Below are positions 5,556-37,461 of a stretch of 64,000 bases of DNA, piece by piece. Within the stretch, counting starts at the first letter, position 1, and each line of letters starts with the position of its first letter. Source of the DNA: Nitrososphaerales archaeon (GTDB lineage Archaea > Thermoproteota > Nitrososphaeria > Nitrososphaerales > Gagatemarchaeaceae); contig JBEKJM010000003.1 in the NCBI GenBank assembly GCA_050011215.1, forward strand, positions 1,641 through 65,640, in the 5' to 3' direction. Under the pieces are notes generated by a model, which saw only the letters and a list, made by a program, of their open reading frames with translations, searched no databases and was not told where the DNA came from. A program made the translations under genes and the position numbers.

Positions 5556-7787
5556 CTATCTAACGTCTGCGACCATCCCCTTCTCGAGCTCCCCCATCAG
5601 CTCCTTCGCCGACACGAGCGACAGCCCGATCAGGGTGGTCCTGCCCTTCATGCCCCTGCCCGAGAGCTGGGTCTCTATGATGCCCTTCCTGGACAGCTCG
5701 TTGACGTCGTTCCACACCTGTGTGTGGTGGTTCGCCGCCACCCCCATGCTCTCGCAGAGTACGCCGTAGCTTCTCTCGACCTCGCCTATGGTGACGTAGG
5801 TCGAGTCCCCCTTCTTGAGGAGGGCAGAGACCGCCATCAGTATCAGCCGCTGGTGCCTCGACAGGTAGCTCAGCTCCTCCTTGCTGAACCCCGGAGGCAG
5901 CGAAGCCTTGGCAGACCTGATGTGTTCGGGCAAGATCCGTGGTGACTCGGAGATGTCAGCGAGCTTCCCGGCCCTGTAGACCAGGTCGAGCGCATACCGA
6001 GCGTCGCCGTACAGACTCGCTATGTCTGCCGCCAGCTGCATCGAGTTGTCGCCCAGGGCGCCATCGGTGAACGCTTCGCTCCGAGAGACTATGATGTCCA
6101 AGAGCTGGGCAGCCGAGTAGGGTTCGAGCGAGACTTCGTTCCACTGCACCGAGCTGAGGGTGCTGAGGTCCACGGCCTTCATGTAATTGAGCGTCTTCGA
6201 AATGAGCAGGGAAGAAAAGACCTGGCTCCCCTGAACCGTCTCTCTCAGGCGCGTTATGGTGTAGAGCGCGGAGGGATCTGAGGTTATGAGGGAGTCAACC
6301 TCGTCGAACGCTATGACCAGGTGCATGTGGTTGCTCCTCAGTTCTTCGACGAGGACGGAGAGGAGCTCCTCGAAGCCGTATCCCCTCGACGGATAATTCT
6401 GACCGAGGGTGCTGAGCGCTCGGACCATTACTGACTGCAGCGTCTTGTCGATCCTGCAGTTGACGTGCAACATCTTCACCAGGTTCCCATACAGCGCCGC
6501 CTTCTTCTGCAGCGATTCGCCGAGCTTCTTGGCGAGCATCGTCTTGCCAGAATTGTGTGTTACCGTGAAATCATCTAAGAGGTATCGTTGATCAGAACCG
6601 ACTCTAAAACCGAAGTACTCTTCTTCCCCCAGAGGTTTTAGCGTGAAGCCCGTCCTTAAAACGCTCTTCTTCTGCCTTCTTGTCGGTGCCTGTTTTCTAC
6701 TAACCCTAGTAGGAATTTTGGAAATGTCGCCTGAAATTCCAACTCTGTAATACAGTCCCTCATGACCAAATTGGTCGTGGGAAGATTTTTCCCTGACAAA
6801 AGCGTAGAATCCAAGACTTCTAGACACAAATGCCACATCTTCAGCGAGCTGTTTCGACTTGGTGATAAAATCAAAGTATCCTGCATCTAGACTACCGTCT
6901 GTGTCCAGTAATCCAGCCAGAACTTCTAGACGTGTTCTTCTTGATCCAAACTTATACTGAGATGGGATGAACTTCGACTCAGATGTTTCCTTGTAAAGCC
7001 CTAACGCCATTAAATCCTTGGCTAGCCCATTTAGTAATGCTTGTCCACCTGTCCTCCCCGGAGTCAGCATATATTCTTGGGCTTGGCCTGCTGGGTACTG
7101 GCGTACTTTTAGCAAGTACTTTCCAGATTGGCTATTTACTATAGTTGATAGTTCTGCGTCCGCCGAAGTGATAGTGATATGGCCATTGGCACTACTTCCG
7201 TCCCCTAAATACACACCAAGAAAGTGAGGGTCTATCGACCCAGCTGGCATCTGAGGAAAATCGACGCCAGTTCTCATTAATTTGTAGAGACCCTTGGGAC
7301 CAACATACCATCTTGGAAGCTTTAACAGCTCGCTTACTCTAATGTCTTTGATTATCCCTTCAGTATCTTCAGACGGCTTTCGTGGGTGTTTCTTCAGTCG
7401 AGTTTGTATGACTGTCAGAACATGGTCCTCAGAAACCACAAATGGTTTTCCCTTTATCGGCTGGACTTCAATCATCCGTCCAAAACCATGTGCCGTCTCA
7501 AGCACTTTTCTTGGGGTACTGTCTGGACCCATCAACAAGTCTCCTTGAGTCACGTCTTCGACGCGTTTGAGAGATCCGTCAAACATCAAAACGAGTTGTC
7601 CTTTCCTATGGCACCCGACAGGCCCGGAGAGCATCACGTTCTGGCTCGCCTTCGAGGCGTTCTGCACGACGCTCTGGAAGTAGAGTTCGAGGGCCCTGAG
7701 CTGGTCGTCGCGGTGAGGGATTTGGTGCGGCAGGTATTCCGGGAAGAGGAATGACTCGTCCCTGAAGACGGAGCGCGGGGGCACCAA
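5556..7787 (-). CDS. cdc6: Orc1/Cdc6 replication initiator interrupted by an intein
   Basis: N-extein FPEYLPHQIPHRDDQLRAL...MLSGPVG joins C-extein SGKTMLAKK...VIAFDEVD with a C-terminal winged helix. Spliced product is 389 aa with the P-loop GPVGSGKT restored. Confidence 0.9.
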   Translation of the reverse strand: MVPPRSVFRDESFLFPEYLPHQIPHRDDQLRALELYFQSVVQNASKASQNVMLSGPVGCHRKGQLVLMFDGSLKRVEDVTQGDLLMGPDSTPRKVLETAHGFGRMIEVQPIKGKPFVVSEDHVLTVIQTRLKKHPRKPSEDTEGIIKDIRVSELLKLPRWYVGPKGLYKLMRTGVDFPQMPAGSIDPHFLGVYLGDGSSANGHITITSADAELSTIVNSQSGKYLLKVRQYPAGQAQEYMLTPGRTGGQALLNGLAKDLMALGLYKETSESKFIPSQYKFGSRRTRLEVLAGLLDTDGSLDAGYFDFITKSKQLAEDVAFVSRSLGFYAFVREKSSHDQFGHEGLYYRVGISGDISKIPTRVSRKQAPTRRQKKSVLRTGFTLKPLGEEEYFGFRVGSDQRYLLDDFTVTHNSGKTMLAKKLGESLQKKAALYGNLVKMLHVNCRIDKTLQSVMVRALSTLGQNYPSRGYGFEELLSVLVEELRSNHMHLVIAFDEVDSLITSDPSALYTITRLRETVQGSQVFSSLLISKTLNYMKAVDLSTLSSVQWNEVSLEPYSAAQLLDIIVSRSEAFTDGALGDNSMQLAADIASLYGDARYALDLVYRAGKLADISESPRILPEHIRSAKASLPPGFSKEELSYLSRHQRLILMAVSALLKKGDSTYVTIGEVERSYGVLCESMGVAANHHTQVWNDVNELSRKGIIETQLSGRGMKGRTTLIGLSLVSAKELMGELEKGMVADVR
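6552..7613 (-). other. intein (354 aa) with LAGLIDADG homing endonuclease, inserted in the Walker A motif of Orc1/Cdc6
   Basis: Starts with Cys59 (codon 7611-7613) and ends ..VTHN (Asn codon 6552-6554), followed by Ser+1. Two LAGLIDADG blocks (LGVYLGDGSS, LAGLLDTDGS). Clearly more AT-rich than the flanking exteins. Confidence 0.85.
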
Positions 7788-8117
7788 GGGGAAGTTCCCC
7801 TGATTCGTCGCTCTTCACCTTATAACCTTGATTACGATGATGAGAACGTCCACATTAGGGAGGTCACTGAAAGTGTTTCTTCGCCTCTGGCGCCGGGGCC
7901 AAAGACTCGAGCTAGGAGGTGGGCATACCGATATTGGTATGGAACCGAGCTGCTGGACGTCTTGGCAGCCCTGCCTGGATTCGAGCACCTGGAACGGGGT
8001 TCCCTGCCTGTCGAGTCCCTAAGCGACGACCTCCCGTTACGCGGTCGGCGCAGCAGGACGCCCTCGACCTAAGGAAGCACAGATTAATACCCGCGAGCCG
8101 ACAAGCGGTCGGCCTCA
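7788..8117. promoter_or_regulatory. divergent orc1/cdc6-purD intergenic region with several palindromes; possible origin-proximal or regulatory DNA
   Basis: Palindromes GGGGAAGTTCCCC (7788-7800), ATACCGATATTGGTAT (7925-7940) and GGAACGGGGTTCC (7991-8003). TATA-like GATTAATAC ~40 nt upstream of purD. Function unproven. Confidence 0.3.
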
Positions 8118-9521
8118 ATGGACAGGGTGGGCGTCCTCGTCGTCTCGAAGTGCCTCAGCGCGGCCGCCATCGTCGACGCCATCTCCAGAAGCGAGAAGTA
8201 CAGGCCCGAGTTCTTTGTCGTCGAGAAGCAGCGCAACCCCTTCAACGTCAGGAGGGCCAAGGTCCACGTGGTCGTCCCTGACCTCGCTGTCGCGGACGTC
8301 GTGAAGGCCGCCGGGAAGTTCAAGGAAAGGATTGCATTCGGGCTGACGGACACCGAGGACTTCGTAGTGGCGGGTGGTCGGGACGTCCTCGAGCGCGAGA
8401 CGGGGATTCCAATGATCTGCGTCTCGAAGGAGTACGCCCTGGAGGGGTCCAAGGCGGCGCAGCGGCGCCTGTTCGACAAGACATTCAGAGGCGCAAACCC
8501 CAGGTACAGGATCTTCGATCAGAAGGATTACCCCGGGACGCAACAGGCAGTGACCGACTTCAGAAAGGCGATCAGCGAGCTCGGTCCGGCTGTGATCAAG
8601 CCGGACGCGCCGGCGAGGGGCGCGGGTGTGGGTGTCTGGGGGAGCGATTTCAGCACGGACAGGGAGGCCGCGCAGTTCTTCCTGAACGCCTTCGCGAAGG
8701 GGAGCGTCGTCGTGGAGGAGAAGGTCGAGGGCGAGGAGTCCAGCTTCCACGCCTTCAGCGACGGAAGGCACTTCGTCCCCGCCCCCATGAGCAGGGACTA
8801 CAAGAGGAGCCTCGACGGCAACCGAGGCCCTCTGACCGGCGGGATGGGAAGCTACAGAGGACCTCGTGCGCACCTCCCCTTCGTCAGAGAATCGGACTGG
8901 AGCGGGCTCGTGCAGGCCGAGGAGAGGGCTTTCAGGCTGTGGAAAGGAAGAGGCTCGAACCCGGGCCTGCGCGGCATAGTCCTCTACGACGCGATCATGC
9001 ACACCGGCGGGGGCTTCAAGGTCCTGGAGAGAAACAGCAGGGGAGGGAACACGGAGCTCATCAACCTGCTGACAACGATCACGGACGACTTCGTCGACGT
9101 GTGCTACCGCATGCTGGACGGCGCGCTCAAGGGCATCAAGTTCGGGCGCACGGCTTCGGTGGTGACCTGCGCCGTCCCCGCCTCTTACGGGACCGGCACC
9201 CCAGCGCCTGGCATGGACGAGGCGATAGACCTGTCCGGGGCCTACGGCCTGAGCGAGAGGAGCGGGGGGAGTATCAGAATCCTTCCCATGGACGTGCGAA
9301 TCGAGAGGGGCCGGTGCCTGATGGGTCGCTCGCGCTCAGTGGCAGTCGTCGGGCTCGGCTCGACCCTGGAAGAAGCCCGTCGAGCCTCTCTGCGCGGGGC
9401 AGGGTCTCTTGTCGGGCCGGTCAGGTGGAGAAAGGACATCGCGAGTTCCTCGGACCTACGGAGCAGCCGAGACCATCTCAGGAGCCTCCGTCGCGTCGCG
9501 CACACTGTCGCTAGTGCTTGA
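8118..9521 (+). CDS. purD: phosphoribosylamine-glycine ligase (divergent PurD, ATP-grasp)
   Basis: GPLTGGMGSY and IVLYDAIMHTGGGFKVLERNSRGGNTE match PurD C-domain motifs. The N-terminus lacks the usual GGREHA motif. Confidence 0.7.
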   Translation: MDRVGVLVVSKCLSAAAIVDAISRSEKYRPEFFVVEKQRNPFNVRRAKVHVVVPDLAVADVVKAAGKFKERIAFGLTDTEDFVVAGGRDVLERETGIPMICVSKEYALEGSKAAQRRLFDKTFRGANPRYRIFDQKDYPGTQQAVTDFRKAISELGPAVIKPDAPARGAGVGVWGSDFSTDREAAQFFLNAFAKGSVVVEEKVEGEESSFHAFSDGRHFVPAPMSRDYKRSLDGNRGPLTGGMGSYRGPRAHLPFVRESDWSGLVQAEERAFRLWKGRGSNPGLRGIVLYDAIMHTGGGFKVLERNSRGGNTELINLLTTITDDFVDVCYRMLDGALKGIKFGRTASVVTCAVPASYGTGTPAPGMDEAIDLSGAYGLSERSGGSIRILPMDVRIERGRCLMGRSRSVAVVGLGSTLEEARRASLRGAGSLVGPVRWRKDIASSSDLRSSRDHLRSLRRVAHTVASA

Positions 9522-28606: not shown

Positions 28607-29749
28607 ATGACGATAGTCAAGTCGGAGCCTGCCAACGTGAATGCCAGGACGGCCCAGCTTGTGAAGCTCCTTACGGAGGTCGGACCCGATGTCCCGGAGA
28701 TTTCTCGGAGGCTGGGGCAGTTCAAGGAATCGGTGAGATACCGTTACAAGGAGAAGATTCTGAACAAGGGTTTCGCGGTCCAGGGTAAGGCGGACCATGA
28801 GAAACTCGGCCTTCGCAGGGTCATAGTGGTGCTCGATTTCGCCGATGCCTACAGGAAGTTCGCCCAGTCGATCCTGGCGTCGATGAACGAGCTCTGCTAC
28901 CTCGTCAGCTTCGCTAAGACAATGCCAAGGGGATACTACATCGCTAGCTTCAGCGCACCACGCGAGTTCGTCAACCAACTGAAGTTCTTCCTCGGCGTAA
29001 TGAAGGAGAAGGGAATGTTCTCCCGTCTTGACGTTGTAGACTTCGACTGGATGAGAGTCGTGCCTATGAAGTCGGAGTTCTACGACTTCGACACAGGGAG
29101 GTGGGACTTCGACTGGACGGCCAAGGAAACCAGTGACTTCGGGTCGGCCCACTACATGCCTTCTGGCCCGGCAAAGTTCGACTACGTGGACCTGCTGATC
29201 ATCAAGGAGCTTCAGATGGACGCGAACAAGTCGCTAAAGGAGATTTCAGACAAGCTGAAGGTGAACTACAAAAAGCTCGCGTGGCACTACACCACGCACG
29301 TGGTGGCCAGGCGCCTTCTCAGCGGTTACTCGGTCAACTGGATGGGCACGAGGTACGACTATGGAATCGAGAAGGCCCTTCACCGGCAGCATCAGTACTT
29401 TGCGGTCACTCTCATGGTCCGCGGAGTCACGGAATACGAGACGATGTCTTTGAGACAGGCCGTCGACAGGCTTCCGTTCCTCTGGTCCGAGGCGGTCGGG
29501 ACCAACTACTTCTGCGAGTTCGCCTTTCCAGTCGATTTCGTCGTCGAAGGGCTCCAGTACCTGACCGAGATGATATCGGCGGTCAAGGAGAGGGCAGAGA
29601 TCTACGCCGTTGACCAGTCAGACGCGGCATCCTTCACAATCTCCTACAGCCGGTTTGACCAAGATCTGAAGAAATGGGAATTCGACCTGAATGACCTGAT
29701 CGGTAGGTTCGAAACGCTGATTGTGGAAATAAAGAAAGAGACACACTAG
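28607..29749 (+). CDS. duplicated Lrp/AsnC-like HTH protein
   Basis: Two HTH-like segments: TAQLVKLLTEVGPDVPEISRRLGQFKESVRYRY and VDLLIIKELQMDANKSLKEISDKLKVNYKKLAWHY. Each is followed by an alpha/beta segment. Confidence 0.5.
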   Translation: MTIVKSEPANVNARTAQLVKLLTEVGPDVPEISRRLGQFKESVRYRYKEKILNKGFAVQGKADHEKLGLRRVIVVLDFADAYRKFAQSILASMNELCYLVSFAKTMPRGYYIASFSAPREFVNQLKFFLGVMKEKGMFSRLDVVDFDWMRVVPMKSEFYDFDTGRWDFDWTAKETSDFGSAHYMPSGPAKFDYVDLLIIKELQMDANKSLKEISDKLKVNYKKLAWHYTTHVVARRLLSGYSVNWMGTRYDYGIEKALHRQHQYFAVTLMVRGVTEYETMSLRQAVDRLPFLWSEAVGTNYFCEFAFPVDFVVEGLQYLTEMISAVKERAEIYAVDQSDAASFTISYSRFDQDLKKWEFDLNDLIGRFETLIVEIKKETH

Positions 29750-31622: not shown

Positions 31623-32327
31623 ATGTCAGAAGAGGAGACCCATCAGGAACCGATCTTCTCGCTAGGACCGAGCGCGGTGAAGGAACTGCTCGGGAGGGAG
31701 AGGCTTGCGCTCATGTTGACGGTGCTCCTCGTCGAGCTGATGATATTCTTCGTCGCGACATCGGTGCCCATGGGCACGGCCACCCAGCAGGCACTGCAGC
31801 AGGAGGCGAACAGTGTCAAAGAAGTTTCGAACGGCTTGACCCCAACAGGCGAATTGGTCTACATCTTCACCCACAACGCGGCGATTGCGTTTGGTGAGAT
31901 GGTTCCGGTAATCGGAGGCCTCCTCTGGGTCTTCTCCATTTACGTGACAGGACAGATATTCCAGGTGGTGGCTCTCTCCTATGGTGTTCCTGGAGCGCTG
32001 TACGGCCTCCTCCTCCTCGTGTTCTACCCATTCGCAATCGTAGAGCTGTCCGCATACGCGGTTGCGGTCAACTCCGGAGTGATGCTGATTGTCGCCTGGA
32101 GGCGGCGCCGACTCAGGAGCGAAACGAGGGTTTTCGCGCTGGAAGTCGGAATCGTCGCCGCTTTGCTCCTAGTGGCGGCCTCAATGGAGACCATCACCCT
32201 CCTGAATCAGGACGTGGGCATCGCCCTCTGGATTCCGACCGGCCTCACAATCGCGGCTCTGGCTCTAGTCTCCCACAGGGTCCAGTCCAAGCCTTACTTG
32301 GGACCGACCCGGGAGACAGCAAGCTAA
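31623..32327 (+). CDS. SpoIIM/DUF95-like integral membrane protein
   Basis: 6-TM protein. IFTHNAAIAFGEMVPVIGGLLWVFSIYVTG resembles the stage II sporulation protein M family core. Confidence 0.5.
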   Translation: MSEEETHQEPIFSLGPSAVKELLGRERLALMLTVLLVELMIFFVATSVPMGTATQQALQQEANSVKEVSNGLTPTGELVYIFTHNAAIAFGEMVPVIGGLLWVFSIYVTGQIFQVVALSYGVPGALYGLLLLVFYPFAIVELSAYAVAVNSGVMLIVAWRRRRLRSETRVFALEVGIVAALLLVAASMETITLLNQDVGIALWIPTGLTIAALALVSHRVQSKPYLGPTRETAS

Positions 32328-33754
32328 CTCCTTTGGATCTTTCCGGCCATCTTGAGGAGATCTGAACCTCTTCTTGTTAGCTCATAGAAGACTCGCTCCC
32401 TACCCCTCGCTGTCACGACTCCTGACCTCCTCACCAGGGCGAGTCCCTCAAGCTCGCCAAGGTGCTGGTAGACGCTTGCAGTGGTGATCGTCCTTCCCGC
32501 TGAAAGCTCCTTCCAGAGCTCGTATCCGAAACGTGGCCTGCTTGTCAACGAGCGGAGCAGTTTCAGCTTGGTCTCCCCGATTTGCACCCGCGCGACGGGG
32601 TAGTCTTCCTTCACGACCACCTGTTTAGTCGCCTTGGCAATCCTGGAAATCGCTTTCGTATCCTTAAGCCCCGCACCAGTAATCACGCAGACTATCACCT
32701 CGTCGGCGTCGATCAGCCCTTGCGACTTTGCCGTCTGCAGTGCCGCCACGACCGAAGCGGCTGCAGGCTCTGCAAAGATGCCCTCGGTCCCAGCAAGAAG
32801 ACCCGTTGCGTCGATTGTCCCCTTCGCGGTTGTCTCGACCCATTGCCCCCCAGACTCCTGCATCGCCCTCATCGCCTCGCTTCTGAGAATGGGCTCGGAT
32901 TCCTCCAGCTCGGTGAAAAGCCCTTCGGCTTGCTCTGTGTAGTTCGTCCGACGCGGACCCCCAGAGGTAGGCGCAACCCCCGAGAACTGCACCCCTACGA
33001 GCCTGCAACTCGATCTGTCTATCAGCCCAGAATCCTTCAGCTGCCGGACAGCCCTCCAGAACATGCTGAGATGCCCTCCTGTGCCGACGGGGACGAGTAT
33101 CACATCTGGCGTCTTCCATCCCAGGTCCTGAACGATCTCGAAGCACGTCGTCTTCTCTCCTTCCAAGACGTACGGGTTCCCTGCGGTCACGGAGATAGAG
33201 CGGTCGTTGGACCCGCCTTTCCTCGCGGGCGTTGAGGATGTTTCGATGCGCGCACCGTAGGCGATCATCTGGTATAGCTTGCCCCGGTCAGTGTTTGGGC
33301 GTATCCTGATCTCGGCACCGATGCCCGCCTTCGCGCAGTAGGCTGCGAGCGAAGCGCCCAAGTTACCCGTGGTCACACAGGAACAGGTCTTGACGCCCCT
33401 CTCCTTTGCCAGGCTCACCAAGACCGTCGAGCCGCGGTCCATGAAGGACCCCGTAGGGTTCCTACTTTCGTCCTTGACCAGAAGATGGCCGAACCCCAGC
33501 TCCGACCCGAGCCTCGTCGCCCGCATCAGAGGAGTGCCGCCTTCGCCTAGGCTGACGACATCCTCAGTTGCTGTCTTCGGCAGGAGGGCCCGGTACCTCC
33601 AGACCCCAGGAGGGAGCCTCTCTAGGTCCTCCCTGTCGACAGAAGGCTTCTCTCTCCCGGTGAAGATGACCGCCGAACCACAAGCATCACAAGCCGCATC
33701 GAGCGAATTGGTCTCGAAGGTTTGAGAACAACTCACACATTCAAAGAGTGCCAT
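32324..33754 (-). CDS. threonine-synthase-like PLP fold-II domain (Lys->Met at PLP site) fused to C-terminal PadR-like wHTH
   Basis: N-terminal Zn ribbon CVSCS..CDACG, then VKDESRNPTGSFMDRG (canonical ..SFKDRG), TTGNLGASLAAYCAKAG and PVGTGGH. C-terminal LKLLRSLTSRPRFGYELWKEL...VYQHLGELEGLALV...RVFYELTRRG. Confidence 0.8.
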   Translation of the reverse strand: MALFECVSCSQTFETNSLDAACDACGSAVIFTGREKPSVDREDLERLPPGVWRYRALLPKTATEDVVSLGEGGTPLMRATRLGSELGFGHLLVKDESRNPTGSFMDRGSTVLVSLAKERGVKTCSCVTTGNLGASLAAYCAKAGIGAEIRIRPNTDRGKLYQMIAYGARIETSSTPARKGGSNDRSISVTAGNPYVLEGEKTTCFEIVQDLGWKTPDVILVPVGTGGHLSMFWRAVRQLKDSGLIDRSSCRLVGVQFSGVAPTSGGPRRTNYTEQAEGLFTELEESEPILRSEAMRAMQESGGQWVETTAKGTIDATGLLAGTEGIFAEPAAASVVAALQTAKSQGLIDADEVIVCVITGAGLKDTKAISRIAKATKQVVVKEDYPVARVQIGETKLKLLRSLTSRPRFGYELWKELSAGRTITTASVYQHLGELEGLALVRRSGVVTARGRERVFYELTRRGSDLLKMAGKIQRS

Positions 33755-33797
33755 CAGCTGGGATGACGGCGGCTGAGACCAATATATAGGTTGGAGC

Positions 33798-33982
33798 TTA
33801 TATATCCAAGGCAGTTGCCGCGGCCTCGAACCACATCATGATGCGGAACGCCCCTGAGCGGAAGTCCGCATGACCGCAAGAACAGCAATCCTGGAGCTGA
33901 AGAGAACAGACAACTGGGCTGTCGCCAACGCAGCCGCCTTCGATGCGTTGCTAAGGGGACGATCCTGTCGAAGAGTGAACAA
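33798..33982 (+). promoter_or_regulatory. promoter plus ~155-nt structured 5' leader of the ECF-S gene
   Basis: TATA TTATATAT (33798-33805) predicts a TSS near 33828. Hairpins at 33841-33871 (7-bp stem) and 33926-33950 (7-bp stem). A 38-codon uORF (33870-33986) overlaps the downstream ATG as ATGA. Confidence 0.35.
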
Positions 33983-34804
33983 ATGAGCTCAGAGAAGAAA
34001 AGAATCAATAATGGGACGATAGCCGCGACGGCTGTCTTTACTGCTTTCGTAGCCGCAGCAACCTCGGTTTTCTCAGTCTACATTCCTGCTACGACCGGAT
34101 ACTTCAACGTCGGCGAAATCATGGTGTACACATCAGCCCTGCTCATGGGCCCTTATGTCGGAGCCTTCGCCGGAGGAGTCGGATCAATGCTCTCTGACCT
34201 TTCGCTCGGCTACCCCTACTATGCTCCTGGAACGCTTCTGGTAAAGGGCCTTGAAGGATTCATAGTCGGCTATCTGGCAACCAAGACCTTCGCAAAGGTC
34301 ACGAAGGCGGTCTGGAGAGGCGTTGCTCTGACTTCAGGGCTGCTCTTCGCTTTTGCCCTTTCCTATGTGGGAACCACTTTTCTTTCGGGTAACTTCCCAC
34401 TTACACTCGGCGGGGTGTGGGACTTACCGGCATACACTGTCAACTTCCAAGTGCCCGCTCTCTGGTGGATTGCGCTAGCGGCTCTCTCATTCGTCGTCAT
34501 ACTTTTCGTTGGGCTGAAGATCGAAACAAGGTCGGGTCTAATCGTCCTGTCCGTTCTTGCCGGTGGGACAGAGATGGTCGCTGGGTACTACCTTTACGAA
34601 TCCTTCGTCATGCACCTCATCGCACCTGCTTCGGTGGTCGCCACTCTAGCCCCGGCAGCCGAAGTTCCAGTCAACGTAGCACAGATGCTGATTGGATTGC
34701 TCGTTTCAGTTCCCCTAACTAGGAGCATCAAGAAGATGATTGCGAGGTCGTTTACGACTGCGGGAGCTGGCGCGAAATCGCTGGGAGCTCAGGTAACTCC
34801 TTGA
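33983..34804 (+). CDS. ECF-transporter S-component-like membrane protein (substrate unknown)
   Basis: 6-7 TM protein. GEIMVYTSALLMGPYVGAFAGGVGSMLSDLSLGYPYYAPGTLLVKGLEGFIVGYL resembles the ECF S-component core. Confidence 0.55.
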   Translation: MSSEKKRINNGTIAATAVFTAFVAAATSVFSVYIPATTGYFNVGEIMVYTSALLMGPYVGAFAGGVGSMLSDLSLGYPYYAPGTLLVKGLEGFIVGYLATKTFAKVTKAVWRGVALTSGLLFAFALSYVGTTFLSGNFPLTLGGVWDLPAYTVNFQVPALWWIALAALSFVVILFVGLKIETRSGLIVLSVLAGGTEMVAGYYLYESFVMHLIAPASVVATLAPAAEVPVNVAQMLIGLLVSVPLTRSIKKMIARSFTTAGAGAKSLGAQVTP

Positions 34805-35838
34805 AGCGACTTCCCACGGGCAAGATCCCGATTGGGCTGCTGAAGTCGACGGTCCTCAGGATGACGGGGGCCCGGTCGGATGCCATCGTCACGCCGCCCG
34901 AGGCAGGGCTGGACTTCGCCGCCATCAAGCTGGACAGCGGGTACATGGTCGTGTCTGCAGACCCAATCACCGGGGTTTCGGAGGACATCGGGCACTACGC
35001 CATCGACGTCAGCGCCAATGACGTGGCCACCAGTGGGAACAGGCCTCAGTTCGCGGAGTCGGTCGTGCTGCTGCCTGAAGGATCATCTGCGAAGGACGTC
35101 GGAGAAGTGGCCAGACAGATGCACAGGGAGGCAAGGAATCTAGGGATAGCGATAGTGGGAGGTCACACCGAGGTCACCCCAGGCTTAGGGTTTCCCATAG
35201 TTGCTGCGACTGTGTTCAGCTTCGTCGAGAGCTACGTCTCCTCTCGAGACGCGCGAGTCGGAGACGTCATCATGATGACGAAGTCTGCTGGCATAGAAGG
35301 AACCGCGGCCCTAGCCCAGCATGGCAGCCTGAGCGGAAGGGTCCCGGCGGGTGCCACTCTGAGAGCGCGCGGCTTCCGCGCGAGGCTGAGCGTCGTCGAA
35401 GACTCGGTCGCCGCATTCCAGACCGGATTCGTCCGTGCGATGCACGACTGCACGGAGGGCGGGGTCCTCGGCGCGGTCTTCGAGATGTCTCTGGCATCGG
35501 ATCTGGGGTTCATTCTGAGAGAAGGTGCTGTTCCTGTGGCCAAAGAGACGCGCCTAATCTGCGAGGCGCTCTCCCTCGATCCCCTGAAATTGATCGGGTC
35601 GGGCTCAGTCCTCCTTTCTGTGAAGAAGGGAAGGGAGGGTCGCGTGGTGAAGGCTCTAGAACCGGTCTGCAAAGTGACGACCATAGGGGAGTTCACCGAG
35701 AAGAGCAGAGTCCTGGTCAAGAAAGATGGCGGAGAGGAAACTGTGCGCACGGCTCCCGAAGACGAACTGTGGCGCGCTTGGCCAGCGCATCTGAGGACGT
35801 CGCCTCGACCGGGACTCCGCGACTCGAGGAATTGGTAG
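34801..35838 (+). CDS. AIR-synthase-related (PurM/HypE/ThiL superfamily) protein
   Basis: VVSADPITG..., YAIDVSANDVATSG, VGGHTEV and MHDCTEGG motifs. 4-nt overlap with the upstream S-component gene. Confidence 0.7.
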   Translation: MKRLPTGKIPIGLLKSTVLRMTGARSDAIVTPPEAGLDFAAIKLDSGYMVVSADPITGVSEDIGHYAIDVSANDVATSGNRPQFAESVVLLPEGSSAKDVGEVARQMHREARNLGIAIVGGHTEVTPGLGFPIVAATVFSFVESYVSSRDARVGDVIMMTKSAGIEGTAALAQHGSLSGRVPAGATLRARGFRARLSVVEDSVAAFQTGFVRAMHDCTEGGVLGAVFEMSLASDLGFILREGAVPVAKETRLICEALSLDPLKLIGSGSVLLSVKKGREGRVVKALEPVCKVTTIGEFTEKSRVLVKKDGGEETVRTAPEDELWRAWPAHLRTSPRPGLRDSRNW

Positions 35839-35839
35839 C

Positions 35840-37339
35840 CTACTCGACCCAAGAGAACTTCTTCTGCATCGACTTGCTGTAGATCCTGGCCCAGTCGAGT
35901 CCGACCTCGTCGCACCACGACTTGTAGACCCTGGGGTCTATGTAGTTCTTCAGCGATGTGTTGAGATTGTAGTTCTTCGTCCTCTTGAAGAAGTCCAGCT
36001 CCATCTCGAGCTTCCTCACCTTCTTGTCGCTTGACCCAGCGGTCTTCGCCTCATGGAGCCTCTGTTCCTTCTTCTCCAAGGACTGTTCCCAAGTCTTCGG
36101 AGGGGTCCTCTGATGGTTGCAGAATTCCGCCGCCTTAAGGTTGGCTTCCTTTGCGTGGTACAGCTTGTCAAGGTCTTCGGCGTCTCTGAGGTCACTCGAA
36201 CGGAGCGCCTCTTCTGCCTTCGCAGTGGCGTGGTACGTCCTGAAGACCTTTGCAGATAGGCTTGGGACAATCGACGAGAGAAACTCATTCACCATTCTGG
36301 AGCTGACATCGTGAAAGACTTCGGCCTCGGGCTCTTTGCCCGCGGTGAATTCGCGGAGGTTCCTGACGACTGCGGGTGGAGGGCTGTCCTTCTTGTTCCA
36401 AGGAACGCTGTCCTTGCCGAGAAAGTTGAACTCAACGTCGTTTCCCTTCACTGTCACGTGTTCGACCCTGAGGGTGCTTGCGCCTACGGTGTCCGCCTCG
36501 TCCTCGTCTTTCTCGTCTCCGACCCTCATCCCCAGGGTGTCTATGAGGTAGCAGACGGTCGCCACCTGACGAGCCCGCTCGTCCTTGGAATCGAGACCCT
36601 TGAGAATCCTAGCCCTTATTCGCTGGAGGTTCTTCCCGACTTTGAGCGCTTTGTCATACTTCGCCTTGTTTCGGGACTGCTGCAGAGGAGAACTTTCGTG
36701 CAGCCAGACGTACTTCTCCCTGTCTGTCAGCTTGTCGATCCACTTGGCCATCCACATCGAGCCATGGTCGTGTACCACTGCCCCCCACTCGCCAGGCGGA
36801 ATCTGAGCTGACTCCCCGAGGTTCAGCGTCACATCCTTCTGTTGGACCCTCGGCTTCCACCTCCCTCTTAGCGGGTGCTGCCCCCTTCCCATGAAGAGCC
36901 CAGGGGGTTCAACCATCCAGTTGGCGAAGTCCACCTCCTTTCCGTCGAGGAGCGCTCGTCCATATCGAACCTTCAGGGCCTCCTTCCGTTCCTTGCGAGA
37001 GGCGGCCAGCGTCTTCTTTTCATCCTTGCCCATCGCCTCCTTCTGGGCCCTCTCTTCGTCCACGACACGGAAAAGCTCGGAGAAGTCGACGTCGGAAAAC
37101 TTGGCGCCTCTGGACCAGTCCGGAAGCTGCCCAGCGAAGTCGAGCATGAAGTTGGCCGTGAAGACCGGGTCCTTGATGTAGGGAGTGTCCTTCTTCTTGG
37201 CGAGGTTGTACGCCATCTCCTCGGCCAGCGGCGACAGGGAGGCGAGCCTCCCCTTGACCTTCACGGACAGGCCTCGCGGGGAATAGACATCAGGAAAGTT
37301 GACCCCGTTGTGCGAAAGGGTGGTCCAGTAAGCAGTCAT
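35840..37339 (-). CDS. eukaryote-type DNA topoisomerase IB
   Basis: WTTLSHNGVNFP, GLFMGRGQHP, CYLIDTLGMRVGDEKDEDEADTVGASTLRVEHV, FRTYHAT and the active-site region TSLKNYIDPRV (cf. eukaryotic SKxNYxDPR). ATG 37339 is chosen from TATA spacing. Confidence 0.85.
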   Translation of the reverse strand: MTAYWTTLSHNGVNFPDVYSPRGLSVKVKGRLASLSPLAEEMAYNLAKKKDTPYIKDPVFTANFMLDFAGQLPDWSRGAKFSDVDFSELFRVVDEERAQKEAMGKDEKKTLAASRKERKEALKVRYGRALLDGKEVDFANWMVEPPGLFMGRGQHPLRGRWKPRVQQKDVTLNLGESAQIPPGEWGAVVHDHGSMWMAKWIDKLTDREKYVWLHESSPLQQSRNKAKYDKALKVGKNLQRIRARILKGLDSKDERARQVATVCYLIDTLGMRVGDEKDEDEADTVGASTLRVEHVTVKGNDVEFNFLGKDSVPWNKKDSPPPAVVRNLREFTAGKEPEAEVFHDVSSRMVNEFLSSIVPSLSAKVFRTYHATAKAEEALRSSDLRDAEDLDKLYHAKEANLKAAEFCNHQRTPPKTWEQSLEKKEQRLHEAKTAGSSDKKVRKLEMELDFFKRTKNYNLNTSLKNYIDPRVYKSWCDEVGLDWARIYSKSMQKKFSWVE

Positions 37340-37369
37340 GAATCGGCTGGGCCTAGCCCCCCTCGCACG

Positions 37370-37377
37370 TATATAAG
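37370..37377 (-). promoter_or_regulatory. TATA box of the topoisomerase IB gene
   Basis: The minus strand reads TTTTTCTTATATAC, centred ~34 nt upstream of ATG 37339 (leader of ~8 nt). Confidence 0.5.
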
Positions 37378-37461
37378 AAAAATGGCTGTCGCCCCATGCG
37401 ACTCCCTGCATCCCGACAACGGATTAATACGCTAGGGAGCCGGCGCTGCGATGCATCTCCC

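Follow-up and report, generated by a model that had tools for sequence, protein, structure and literature searches.

We describe thrCL, a minus-strand gene in a 64,000-nucleotide stretch of DNA from a Nitrososphaerales archaeon (GenBank assembly GCA_050011215.1, contig JBEKJM010000003.1), hereafter called the window. Its product joins a fold-type II pyridoxal 5′-phosphate (PLP) domain of the threonine synthase (ThrC) type, in which the Schiff-base lysine is replaced by Met105, to a C-terminal PadR-type winged helix-turn-helix (wHTH). The loss of the lysine is conserved, and so are the PLP-binding scaffold around it, a neighbouring gene for the S-component of an energy-coupling factor transporter (ECF-S) and a palindrome between the two genes. 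We consider it probable that thrCL encodes a dimeric, ligand-sensing repressor that would act through the palindrome on the ECF-S operon and on its own gene, with a form of vitamin B6 as the most compatible effector. The protein most likely represents an uncharacterised family of enzyme-derived sensor transcription factors, ancient and widespread in Archaea, with a predicted operator and target.

Results

thrCL encodes a threonine synthase-like domain fused to a PadR domain

An earlier sequence-only reading of this DNA had described the thrCL product as a threonine synthase-like protein without its PLP lysine, fused to a PadR-type DNA-binding domain. Our analysis agrees on all three points. 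The motifs CVSCS...CDACG, TTGNLGASLAAYCAKAG, PVGTGGH and NPTGSFMDRG are read in the translation. Pfam matched the PALP domain with an E-value of 7.2e-57. The best matches among solved structures are threonine synthases with about 35% identity (2zsj, E 3e-53; 2d1f; 6cgq; 1uim). As aligned to 2zsj and 2d1f (nptgsfMdrg against nptgsfKdrg), Met105, encoded by a33442-t33441-g33440 on the minus strand, lies on the Schiff-base lysine. In the Lys-less family, conservation of each of the four cysteines of the N-terminal zinc ribbon is 90% or more. This ribbon gave weak Pfam matches to Zn-ribbon and DUF7129 models and was modelled at a predicted local distance difference test score (pLDDT) of ∼90.

PadR (PF03551) matched residues 399–467 with an E-value of 5.4e-10, and its score of 39.6 bits lies well above the gathering score of 27; 73 of the 75 model positions were covered. 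The earlier proviso that the C-terminus might fail to match any wHTH model therefore does not apply. The AlphaFold2 model of the product, built from 137 sequences, has a mean pLDDT of 82 and a predicted TM-score of 0.70. It contains a confident PALP fold, a disordered linker at residues 361–390 and a confident winged helix. The predicted order of the wHTH elements is H-H-H-E-E-H (H394-402, H410-418, H425-437, E441-449, E452-459, H461-475), with pLDDT values of 81–91 per 10-residue block over residues 391–470. By sequence match and modelled topology, the C-terminal domain is of the PadR type. SVYQHL of the recognition helix is kept across the whole family. The top Foldseek matches for the model were threonine synthases only.

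The product scored below the NCBIfam cut-offs for ThrC: 259.6 against 421 for NF004170, 237.5 against 303 for NF006050 and 146.3 against 167.1 for TIGR00260. Judged by its sequence, which is without the lysine and under all equivalog cut-offs, it is not a threonine synthase. PRK05638 (442 positions) is the sole ThrC model that also spans the wHTH. Membership in it was considered and rejected, since the score of 259.6 falls short of the required 421; a sister clade with Lys or Arg at the position of Met105 comes nearer to this model (357–359 bits).

The loss of the lysine is real and clade-wide

The identical 476-aa protein (MGD0318286.1, from a Nitrososphaerales metagenome-assembled genome, MAG) is found on 8 public contigs in NCBI, JGI, ENA and Logan. 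Together with the clade-wide substitution, this rules out a sequencing or assembly error or a pseudogene. The reading frame is intact, and homologues are conserved down to 32% identity.

Among the 120 closest homologues (56–95% identity), the lysine column holds Ile in 51, Met in 39, Leu in 24, Phe in 3 and Tyr in 1. The other two are P0039, which has Lys, and a fragment without the motif. The sequence-only reading had proposed a search for such substitutions in homologues, and 118 of the 120 carry one. It had also proposed a search for the PALP and PadR architecture. Both domains are present in all but one of the 120.

An exhaustive search was made among 50%-identity representatives, and the proteins were sorted by the presence of a wHTH tail of ∼85 residues. 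The 76 tailed representatives without Lys carry Ile (21), Leu (24), Val (9), Met (5), Thr (4), Arg (8), Phe (2), Asn (1), Ala (1) or Ser (1). Lys is found in eight tailed representatives, six of which are ∼615-aa proteins with a different tail of ∼210 residues. Of the tail-less representatives, 51 have Lys, and a non-Lys residue was seen only in 6 fragments. Such long Lys-bearing ThrC homologues, of ∼610–620 aa with a C-terminal extension of ∼210 residues, are P0197, P0209, P0227, P0242, P0256 and P0270; the P0197 cluster belongs to NC10 bacteria.

For the genomic context, 168 loci were fetched from two independent scans of GTDB genomes and metagenomes. They are a sample, not an enumeration, and the patterns of both scans also matched canonical ThrC. 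Fused ORFs with neither Lys nor Arg number 43. Six fused ORFs have Lys or Arg, three of them fetched on purpose for the sister clade, and all 113 complete unfused ThrC ORFs have Lys. Loss of the lysine tracks the ThrC-PadR fusion.

In public records, members of the family are called “threonine synthase” or “pyridoxal-phosphate dependent enzyme”, in one case “transcriptional regulator”, and JGI already names many of the Lys-less fusions in the metagenome loci L089–L113 “threonine synthase”. At least one Lys-less fusion, P0122, with Ile at the Lys position, exceeds ThrC equivalog cut-offs (NF006050, 329 against 303; TIGR00260, 240 against 167). Automatic pipelines will therefore name such pseudoenzymes threonine synthase.

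The cofactor scaffold is kept and the substrate side is changed

Conservation in the pocket was counted over 67 Lys-less representatives, which are ∼35–40% identical overall. P100, D106, R107 and G226 occur in all 67, T359 in 66, N99 in 65, G130 in 64, G224 in 63, K364 in 62 and N131 in 54, with Asp replacing N131 in 11. The strongly conserved positions are N99-P100-T101-G102-S103-F104, D106-R107, G130-N131, S135, Y139, E198, K201-T202, the G224-x-G226 loop, E324-G325, E329 and T359-G360-x-G362-L-K364. With a mean column identity of 40% in the clade, 15 positions do not vary at all and ∼39 reach 90% conservation or more, many of them in ThrC cofactor-binding motifs. We take these motifs to be the ones that hold the PLP phosphate, O3′ and ring N1 in ThrC, as in the literature on the Thermus thermophilus enzyme.

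The substrate side of the pocket is different. At position 105, the Lys of ThrC is L/I/V/M in the Lys-less clade. Position 132 is A/T in canonical ThrC and L/F in the clade, position 196 is R/T/Q and F/L/Y (Val in the window protein), and position 231 is G/A and M. Compared with 2zsj, the window protein reads TTGNLG in place of STGNTS and TAGNPYV in place of NSVNPYR. In ThrC the substrate phosphate is presumably bound by T88, N154, S155 and R160 (T. thermophilus numbering). Because the residues that bind the phosphate of O-phosphohomoserine are replaced, this compound is disfavoured as a ligand.

The Schiff-base lysine is indispensable in fold II PLP enzymes. By the counts above, this catalytic residue has been lost while the rest of the site is under purifying selection, the pattern that defines a pseudoenzyme sensor. 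The pocket argues against O-phosphohomoserine as the ligand and against an inert scaffold. It fits the reversible, non-covalent binding of a B6-like ligand. Among the Foldseek matches is the K41A mutant of O-acetylserine sulfhydrylase (OASS; 1d6s), a Lys-less fold II enzyme that holds a PLP-methionine external aldimine.

A conserved palindrome lies between thrCL and the ECF-S gene

The intergenic region contains a palindrome of the form ATATATAAG-N6-CCTATATAT (Table 1), whose halves are two back-to-back TATA-box-like sequences. In the window it reads ATATATAAGCTCCAACCTATATAT on the minus strand, with 27 nt between its end and the start codon of thrCL. It is unique there; 0.01 matches are expected by chance at up to 3 mismatches.

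We counted as a match any sequence with 2 mismatches or fewer in the 18 specified bases. On this basis, of the 39 Lys-less loci with upstream sequence, 29 carry the palindrome ahead of thrCL, L008 and L010 among them. In the 1.85 Mb of fetched DNA, every match lies upstream of thrCL or of an ECF-S gene. No further operator copies that would point to a regulon were found in the window, and in the 1.85 Mb there were only chance-level matches with 3 mismatches. Upstream of the Lys/Arg sister-clade fusions, ATATATAAG-N6-CCTATATAT was not seen.

The spacing is fixed at 9-6-9 and, like the non-TATA AAG/CCT flanks, is retained all the way from Nitrososphaerota to Thorarchaeota. In L007, the ECF-S gene is lost and there is no divergent gene; both halves are kept before thrCL. 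In L098, a gene for inositol-phosphate synthase splits the pair, and the full element stays with the ECF-S gene while thrCL has the shorter CCTATATAGG.

Compensatory changes in the two halves were found in L009 (A-T to T-A) and in L108 and L109 (A-T to G-C). They amount to 2 pairs and 3 cells, counts reached in 31 and 5 of 500 shuffles respectively; the covariation score was reached in 2 of 500. Loci with CCCATATATGGG in place of CCTATATATAGG differ in the residues before the recognition helix, where they read DIS[SG]VYQHL. This pattern is shared by the four loci with CCCATATATGG-type boxes (L093, L096, L108 and L109), and the other loci carry K[IL]PSVYQHL or TTASVYQHL. The covariation and the wHTH pattern are suggestive of an operator, not decisive, and may reflect one or two evolutionary events.

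The predicted leader of the ECF-S gene (window 33806–33982), at ∼155 nt, is unusually long compared with ∼27–70 nt in relatives. Searched for a riboswitch, it gave no Rfam match at E-values up to 1. A scan for sigma-70 promoters and terminators gave nothing of note; sigma-70 models are not relevant to an archaeon.

The ECF-S gene is the conserved neighbour

Close relatives are syntenic with the window over the whole region (Topo IB, PAC2, SpoIIM, VIT1) down to 59% identity, and conservation of neighbours among them is therefore uninformative on function. More distant loci are from Bathyarchaeia (L008), Nitrososphaerota (L009) and Thorarchaeota (L010). The only neighbour common to these three is a PF07155 gene, directly upstream and divergent. 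Their other neighbours are CTP synthase and RIO2 kinase in L008, 4-HFC-P synthase and a HisA-like gene in L009, and desulfoferrodoxin in L010.

By tblastn, an ECF-S homologue was found in 31 of the 43 Lys-less loci, mostly divergent and within ∼700 nt, and Pfam added one more (L109). The same search found it in 4 of 6 Lys/Arg fusion loci and in none of 113 canonical thrC loci (1.3 Mb). The association in Lys-less over canonical loci has a Fisher p-value of 3e-23, calculated on loci that are not phylogenetically independent. When flanking ORFs of 38 non-redundant loci were clustered, ECF-S was present in 25 and an AIR-synthase-like gene in 8, from two subclades. The other families reflected only Nitrososphaerales synteny, and no threonine or amino-acid pathway gene recurred near thrCL in these 38 loci.

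The sequence-only reading had proposed the divergent ECF-S/AIR-synthase-like pair as the target. Both genes are real. The ECF-S gene, conserved across phyla, remains the candidate target; the AIR-synthase-like gene is kept in some lineages only (8 of 38 non-redundant loci). The two are probably co-transcribed, because they overlap by 4 nt at the ECF-S stop codon. The AIR-synthase-like protein scored below all family cut-offs in NCBIfam (hypE, 104 bits against 252; thiL, 66 against 184).

The only relative of the ECF-S protein in the PDB is HmpT (4hzu_S), with an E-value of 4e-11 from the single sequence and 1.4e-23 from a profile of archaeal ECF-S proteins. The sole other PDB row for this profile at E-values up to 10 was a chance match to PsaA (E 2.1), and structures of RibU were not matched. 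The match to HmpT consists of two blocks that flank an insert of ∼80 residues in archaeal ECF-S. HmpT binds pyridoxamine and contacts its substrate through Glu41, His84 and a Gln (PMC4860826). In archaeal ECF-S, E41 is conserved, H84 is replaced by an invariant Lys and Q87 by an invariant Glu. The family PF07155 includes PdxU and PdxU2 (PMC9997740). These relationships suggest a B6 vitamer as the substrate of the ECF-S protein.

Table 1. Positions of thrCL, its domains and the features upstream of it in the window.
Feature	Position	Strand	Basis
thrCL, whole gene (ThrC-like pseudoenzyme + PadR wHTH, 476 aa)	32324..33754	-	ORF, ATG start, Pfam
Cys4 zinc ribbon, residues 3-29 (C6, C9, C22, C25)	33668..33748	-	conservation, model
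Fold-type II PLP (PALP) domain, threonine-synthase type, residues 67-360	32675..33556	-	Pfam, PDB, Foldseek
Met105 codon ATG at Schiff-base Lys position	33440..33442	-	sequence, alignment to 2zsj/2d1f
Flexible linker, residues 361-390	32585..32674	-	AlphaFold2 pLDDT <50
PadR winged helix-turn-helix + C-terminal helix, residues 394-475, recognition helix SVYQHLGELE	32330..32575	-	Pfam, AlphaFold2
24-bp palindrome ATATATAAG-N6-CCTATATAT (- strand reading), candidate operator	33782..33805	.	unique in window; recurs upstream of thrCL
ECF-type S-component (PF07155), HmpT/PdxU2-like, inserted transmembrane-helix pair; candidate target	33983-34804	+	Pfam E 5e-31, 4hzu_S
AIR-synthase-superfamily protein (HypE/ThiL/SelD-like)	34801-35838	+	Pfam AIRS + AIRS_C (PF00586/PF02769)

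The Lys-less fusions apparently form one clade

According to source names and record titles, Lys-less fusions occur in Nitrososphaerota, Bathyarchaeia, Thorarchaeota, Njordarchaeales and Desulfurococcales. Sister fusions with Lys or Arg are found mainly in Bathyarchaeia and also in Lokiarchaeota, Hermodarchaeota and other Asgard lineages. A neighbour-joining (NJ) tree of the PALP region, crude and without support values, shows three groups: canonical ThrC (all Lys), fusions with Lys or Arg, and fusions with a hydrophobic residue. The window protein falls in the third group, in which P0039 is the sole member with Lys. The Lys-less fusions are apparently monophyletic. The simplest history is that the fusion came first and was followed by one ancient loss of Lys, with several separate Lys-to-Arg changes in the sister clade.

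Homologous fusions that retain Lys and complement thrC mutants had been named as a possible refutation. Within the window protein's own clade Lys is present only in P0039, whereas in the sister clade around P0183 it is retained in 115 of 118 members. The architecture by itself therefore does not imply a dead enzyme.

P0039 (L169:3001-4440) reads NPTGSIKDRG, with ATC AAG in place of TTC ATG, so that Phe104 becomes Ile and the Met codon becomes AAG. It is present on several contigs and retains the other remodelled pocket residues, and synteny at its locus is complete, with the ECF-S gene, the AIRS gene and the palindrome all in place. Because of this syntenic locus and the remodelled pocket, its Lys looks like a secondary reversion.

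Canonical Lys-bearing thrC genes are present in Nitrososphaeria genomes (L028, L034). In L011, from Bathyarchaeia, a ThrC-PadR fusion of the Arg type is found two genes away from a canonical thrC with Lys (5876-7135, 7959-9386). A different perfect palindrome, TATAGTTATAACTATA, precedes a nearby PF07155 gene in that locus (L011:13018-13294).

Other observations on the loci

One or two AIR-synthase-superfamily genes sit beside the ECF-S gene in a further subclade (L098:647-1702, L099:887-4046). One protein encoded in L099, between two AIRS genes and beside the ECF-S gene and thrCL, has a ThiN domain and an N-terminal extension and may be a thiamine regulator like ThiR. In L109 (4182-8466), the genes after thrCL encode a PfkB-family kinase (with a weak match to Phos_pyr_kin), EcfT (CbiQ), a membrane protein and two ABC ATPases. 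These genes add up to a complete ECF module beside the regulator.

In many Nitrososphaerales relatives a gene for a HAD-family hydrolase lies directly downstream of thrCL in convergent orientation (L003:7437-7880, L004:7450-8106, L005:7486-8157, L169:4495-4932). It is absent from the window. Some HAD phosphatases, such as YbhA, act on PLP (PMC9997740).

The eukaryote-type Topo IB of the window (35840-37411) and the source names given for close homologues both assign the window to Nitrososphaerales. This Topo IB has no insertion. In a related MAG (L006:3339-6065), the N-terminal DNA-binding domain of Topo IB is interrupted by an in-frame insertion of ∼390 aa that matches LAGLIDADG and intein-splicing domains and looks like an intein. 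At 28607-29749, the window encodes a 380-aa ORF that is 76% identical in L007 and conserved in Nitrososphaerales. Its only match, to an AsnC-type HTH, is sub-threshold; the protein is unannotated and possibly DNA-binding.

Discussion

Proposed mechanism

DNA binding at the palindrome, the sign of the regulation and the ligand are what we infer from the conserved features. In our proposal, the ThrC-derived fold II domain, which would have lost catalysis with the change of Lys105 to Met, serves as a dimerising, ligand-sensing module. ThrC enzymes form dimers, as do DNA-bound PadR proteins, so the fusion would offer two wHTH domains to the palindrome; the flexible linkers would let the dimer present both winged helices to positions 33782–33805. 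Since the palindrome coincides with both TATA boxes, binding would block the access of TBP and TFB. The expected outcome would be repression of the ECF-S(-AIRS) operon (33983–35838) and of the nearly leaderless thrCL itself. Occupancy of the Lys-less pocket by the ligand would modulate DNA binding.

As effector, our best guess is a non-covalently bound form of vitamin B6, either PLP or pyridoxamine 5′-phosphate (PMP). The system would then match, in Archaea, the PdxR-type control of B6 uptake in bacteria. We favour B6 because of the retained PLP scaffold, the kinship of the target with HmpT and PdxU, and the precedent of PdxR and pdxU in bacteria. A more specific version, which we put forward only tentatively, is that thrCL encodes the missing archaeal B6 regulator. 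It would bind PLP or PMP reversibly, and the loaded form would repress a PdxU/HmpT-type importer and itself. Equally tentatively, such a regulator may be a convergent analogue of PdxR that is ancient and common to Thermoproteota lineages (Nitrososphaerota, Bathyarchaeia and Desulfurococcales) and Asgard.

Several observations count against a B6-responsive repressor acting at the palindrome. Some fusions of the Lys-retaining sister clade also lie near ECF-S genes, and loss of Lys is therefore not required for this association. About a quarter of the Lys-less loci show no ECF-S gene or no palindrome. The binding-site residues of ECF-S match HmpT only in part. ThiL-like AIRS neighbours, and in L099 a gene with a ThiN domain, hint at a link to thiamine instead of B6, and the original prediction for HmpT-type proteins was transport of the thiamine pyrimidine, hydroxymethylpyrimidine (HMP). 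The covariation support is modest, with 31 of 500 shuffles reaching the pair count. Each half of the palindrome also resembles an ordinary TATA box of the Nitrososphaerales host, and the element could be a bidirectional promoter only.

Alternative explanations

The effector of the same regulator, acting on the same target, may be something else: HMP or its phosphate (HMP-P), another thiamine-related compound, or the external aldimine of PLP with an amino acid. We judge this unlikely. HMP(-P) is a close structural mimic of pyridoxamine and PLP, AIR-synthase-superfamily (ThiL/HypE-like) genes accompany ECF-S in two separate subclades, and the position of the ThiN gene in L099, adjoining the ECF-S gene and thrCL, would suit a thiamine-type effector. 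The changes of H84 to Lys and Q87 to Glu in ECF-S would suit an effector other than B6. Up to the 2015 study, HMP and a B6 vitamer were both open candidates for the cargo of HmpT (PMC4860826). The links to ThiN and AIRS are nevertheless seen in few loci only, and neither a TPP (thiamine pyrophosphate) nor any other riboswitch was matched in the ECF-S leader. The aldimine held by Lys-less OASS in 1d6s makes a PLP-amino-acid effector conceivable, against which stands the lack of a recurring amino-acid pathway gene in the 38 non-redundant loci. The sensor keeps the ThrC contacts to the PLP phosphate, O3′ and N1, which are most simply explained by a B6 ligand.

We find it decidedly unlikely that the palindrome is only a strong bidirectional promoter, with the regulator acting elsewhere and the ECF-S adjacency reflecting co-expression. 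Single CTTATATAT and TATATAAG boxes do occur ∼20 nt upstream of other window ORFs (11192, 37370), and the sequence between the two boxes of the palindrome could be overlapping TFB recognition elements (BRE). Because each half is TATA-box-like and such single boxes precede other ORFs, the palindrome is, at the least, probably the core of a bidirectional promoter. Promoter function alone does not readily explain the spacing and flanks kept from Nitrososphaerota to Thorarchaeota, the retention of both halves in L007 without a divergent gene, the absence of the element from all other promoters in the 1.85 Mb, or the symmetric compensatory changes with a matching change in the wHTH. The spacing, the flanks, the restriction to this gene pair, the compensatory changes and the wHTH pattern argue that the palindrome is also a candidate specific operator.

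An inert PALP domain, which would serve as a dimerisation scaffold in a constitutive, ligand-independent PadR regulator, is very improbable. The hydrophobic residues K105M, L132, V196 and M231 could simply fill the former active site, but cofactor-binding residues without a role in dimerisation are near-invariant (NPTGSF-DRG, G224-x-G226 and T359-G-x-G-L-K).

The conservation data effectively refute the readings of the protein as a working threonine synthase or different PLP enzyme with DNA-binding ability, as an assembly error or as a decaying pseudogene: relatives are annotated as threonine synthase and the sister clade keeps Lys, yet the indispensable lysine is absent throughout the clade, the scores miss all NCBIfam ThrC cut-offs, canonical thrC exists in L028 and L034, the sequence is identical on 8 contigs, and the intact frame is conserved in distant homologues.

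Comparison with known systems

Literature searches for a ThrC-PadR fusion found no description of a characterised protein, in agreement with the sequence-only reading, which knew of no characterised member. That reading had also compared the logic to MocR/GabR regulators built from different folds. This comparison stands as a conceptual likeness only, since the domains are PALP and PadR and Pfam gave no Aminotran or GntR match in the product. Like MocR, GabR and PdxR, thrCL reuses a PLP-enzyme fold, here as the effector part of a transcription factor with a wHTH. Those regulators act as dimers on repeat-type operators, and for thrCL a palindrome and a dimer are proposed. In MocR proteins, a GntR wHTH at the N-terminus precedes an aminotransferase domain of fold type I, in which PLP is covalently bound and the Lys retained, whereas thrCL has a fold-type II ThrC domain without Lys and a C-terminal PadR wHTH, and is not a member of that family. 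PdxR regulons include the B6 transporter gene pdxU, and MocR regulators are reported to be absent from Archaea (PMC5320631). The architecture of thrCL would therefore be an independent invention.

With ThrC (PRK05638/PRK08197/TIGR00260) the protein shares the zinc ribbon, the PALP fold, NPTGSF-DRG, the Gly-rich phosphate loop and TG-GLKD. It differs in the replaced Lys, the hydrophobic pocket at 132, 196 and 231, the sub-cut-off scores and the extra wHTH. The Lys-retaining ThrC-PadR fusions of Bathyarchaeia and Lokiarchaeota have the same three-part architecture and the wHTH signature AVYQHL and are sometimes near PF07155 genes. They are closest to the PRK05638 model, have Lys (115 of 118) or Arg, and form a separate clade in the NJ tree. 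The Lys-less locus L008 and the fusion loci L086 and L087 share a RIO2-kinase neighbour.

RbkR (riboflavin kinase and HTH) and ThiR (ThiN and HTH) also combine, in Archaea, a domain from a vitamin-pathway enzyme with a DNA-binding domain for the control of vitamin genes; ThiR reportedly does so with its ThiN domain (Rodionov and co-workers, J Bacteriol, 2017). The enzyme folds and DNA-binding domains are different. RbkR is catalytically active, whereas thrCL lacks the catalytic residue and its ligand is putative. RbkR has been described as an archaeal enzyme-derived vitamin regulator (PMC8305020).

Resemblance to the PadR family (PadR, LmrR) lies in the wHTH with the GYEL motif and the C-terminal helix. 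PadR proteins bind palindromic operators as dimers and commonly repress their own gene along with a divergent one. Classical members are ∼110–180 aa long with an N-terminal wHTH and no enzyme-like sensor, whereas in thrCL the wHTH is C-terminal to a pseudoenzyme of 390 aa.

Significance

Where a member of this family is present, a false threonine synthase may be counted when metabolism is reconstructed from genomes of Nitrososphaerota, Bathyarchaeia and Asgard archaea. The Lys-retaining sister fusion, the single Lys-less clade and the apparent reversion in P0039 form a natural series from enzyme to sensor. If the operator does coincide with a pair of TATA boxes, it would offer a compact model of how archaea repress divergent promoters. 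For the control of uptake of B6 or a related vitamin in Archaea, the family provides a concrete, testable candidate for which both operator and target are predicted.

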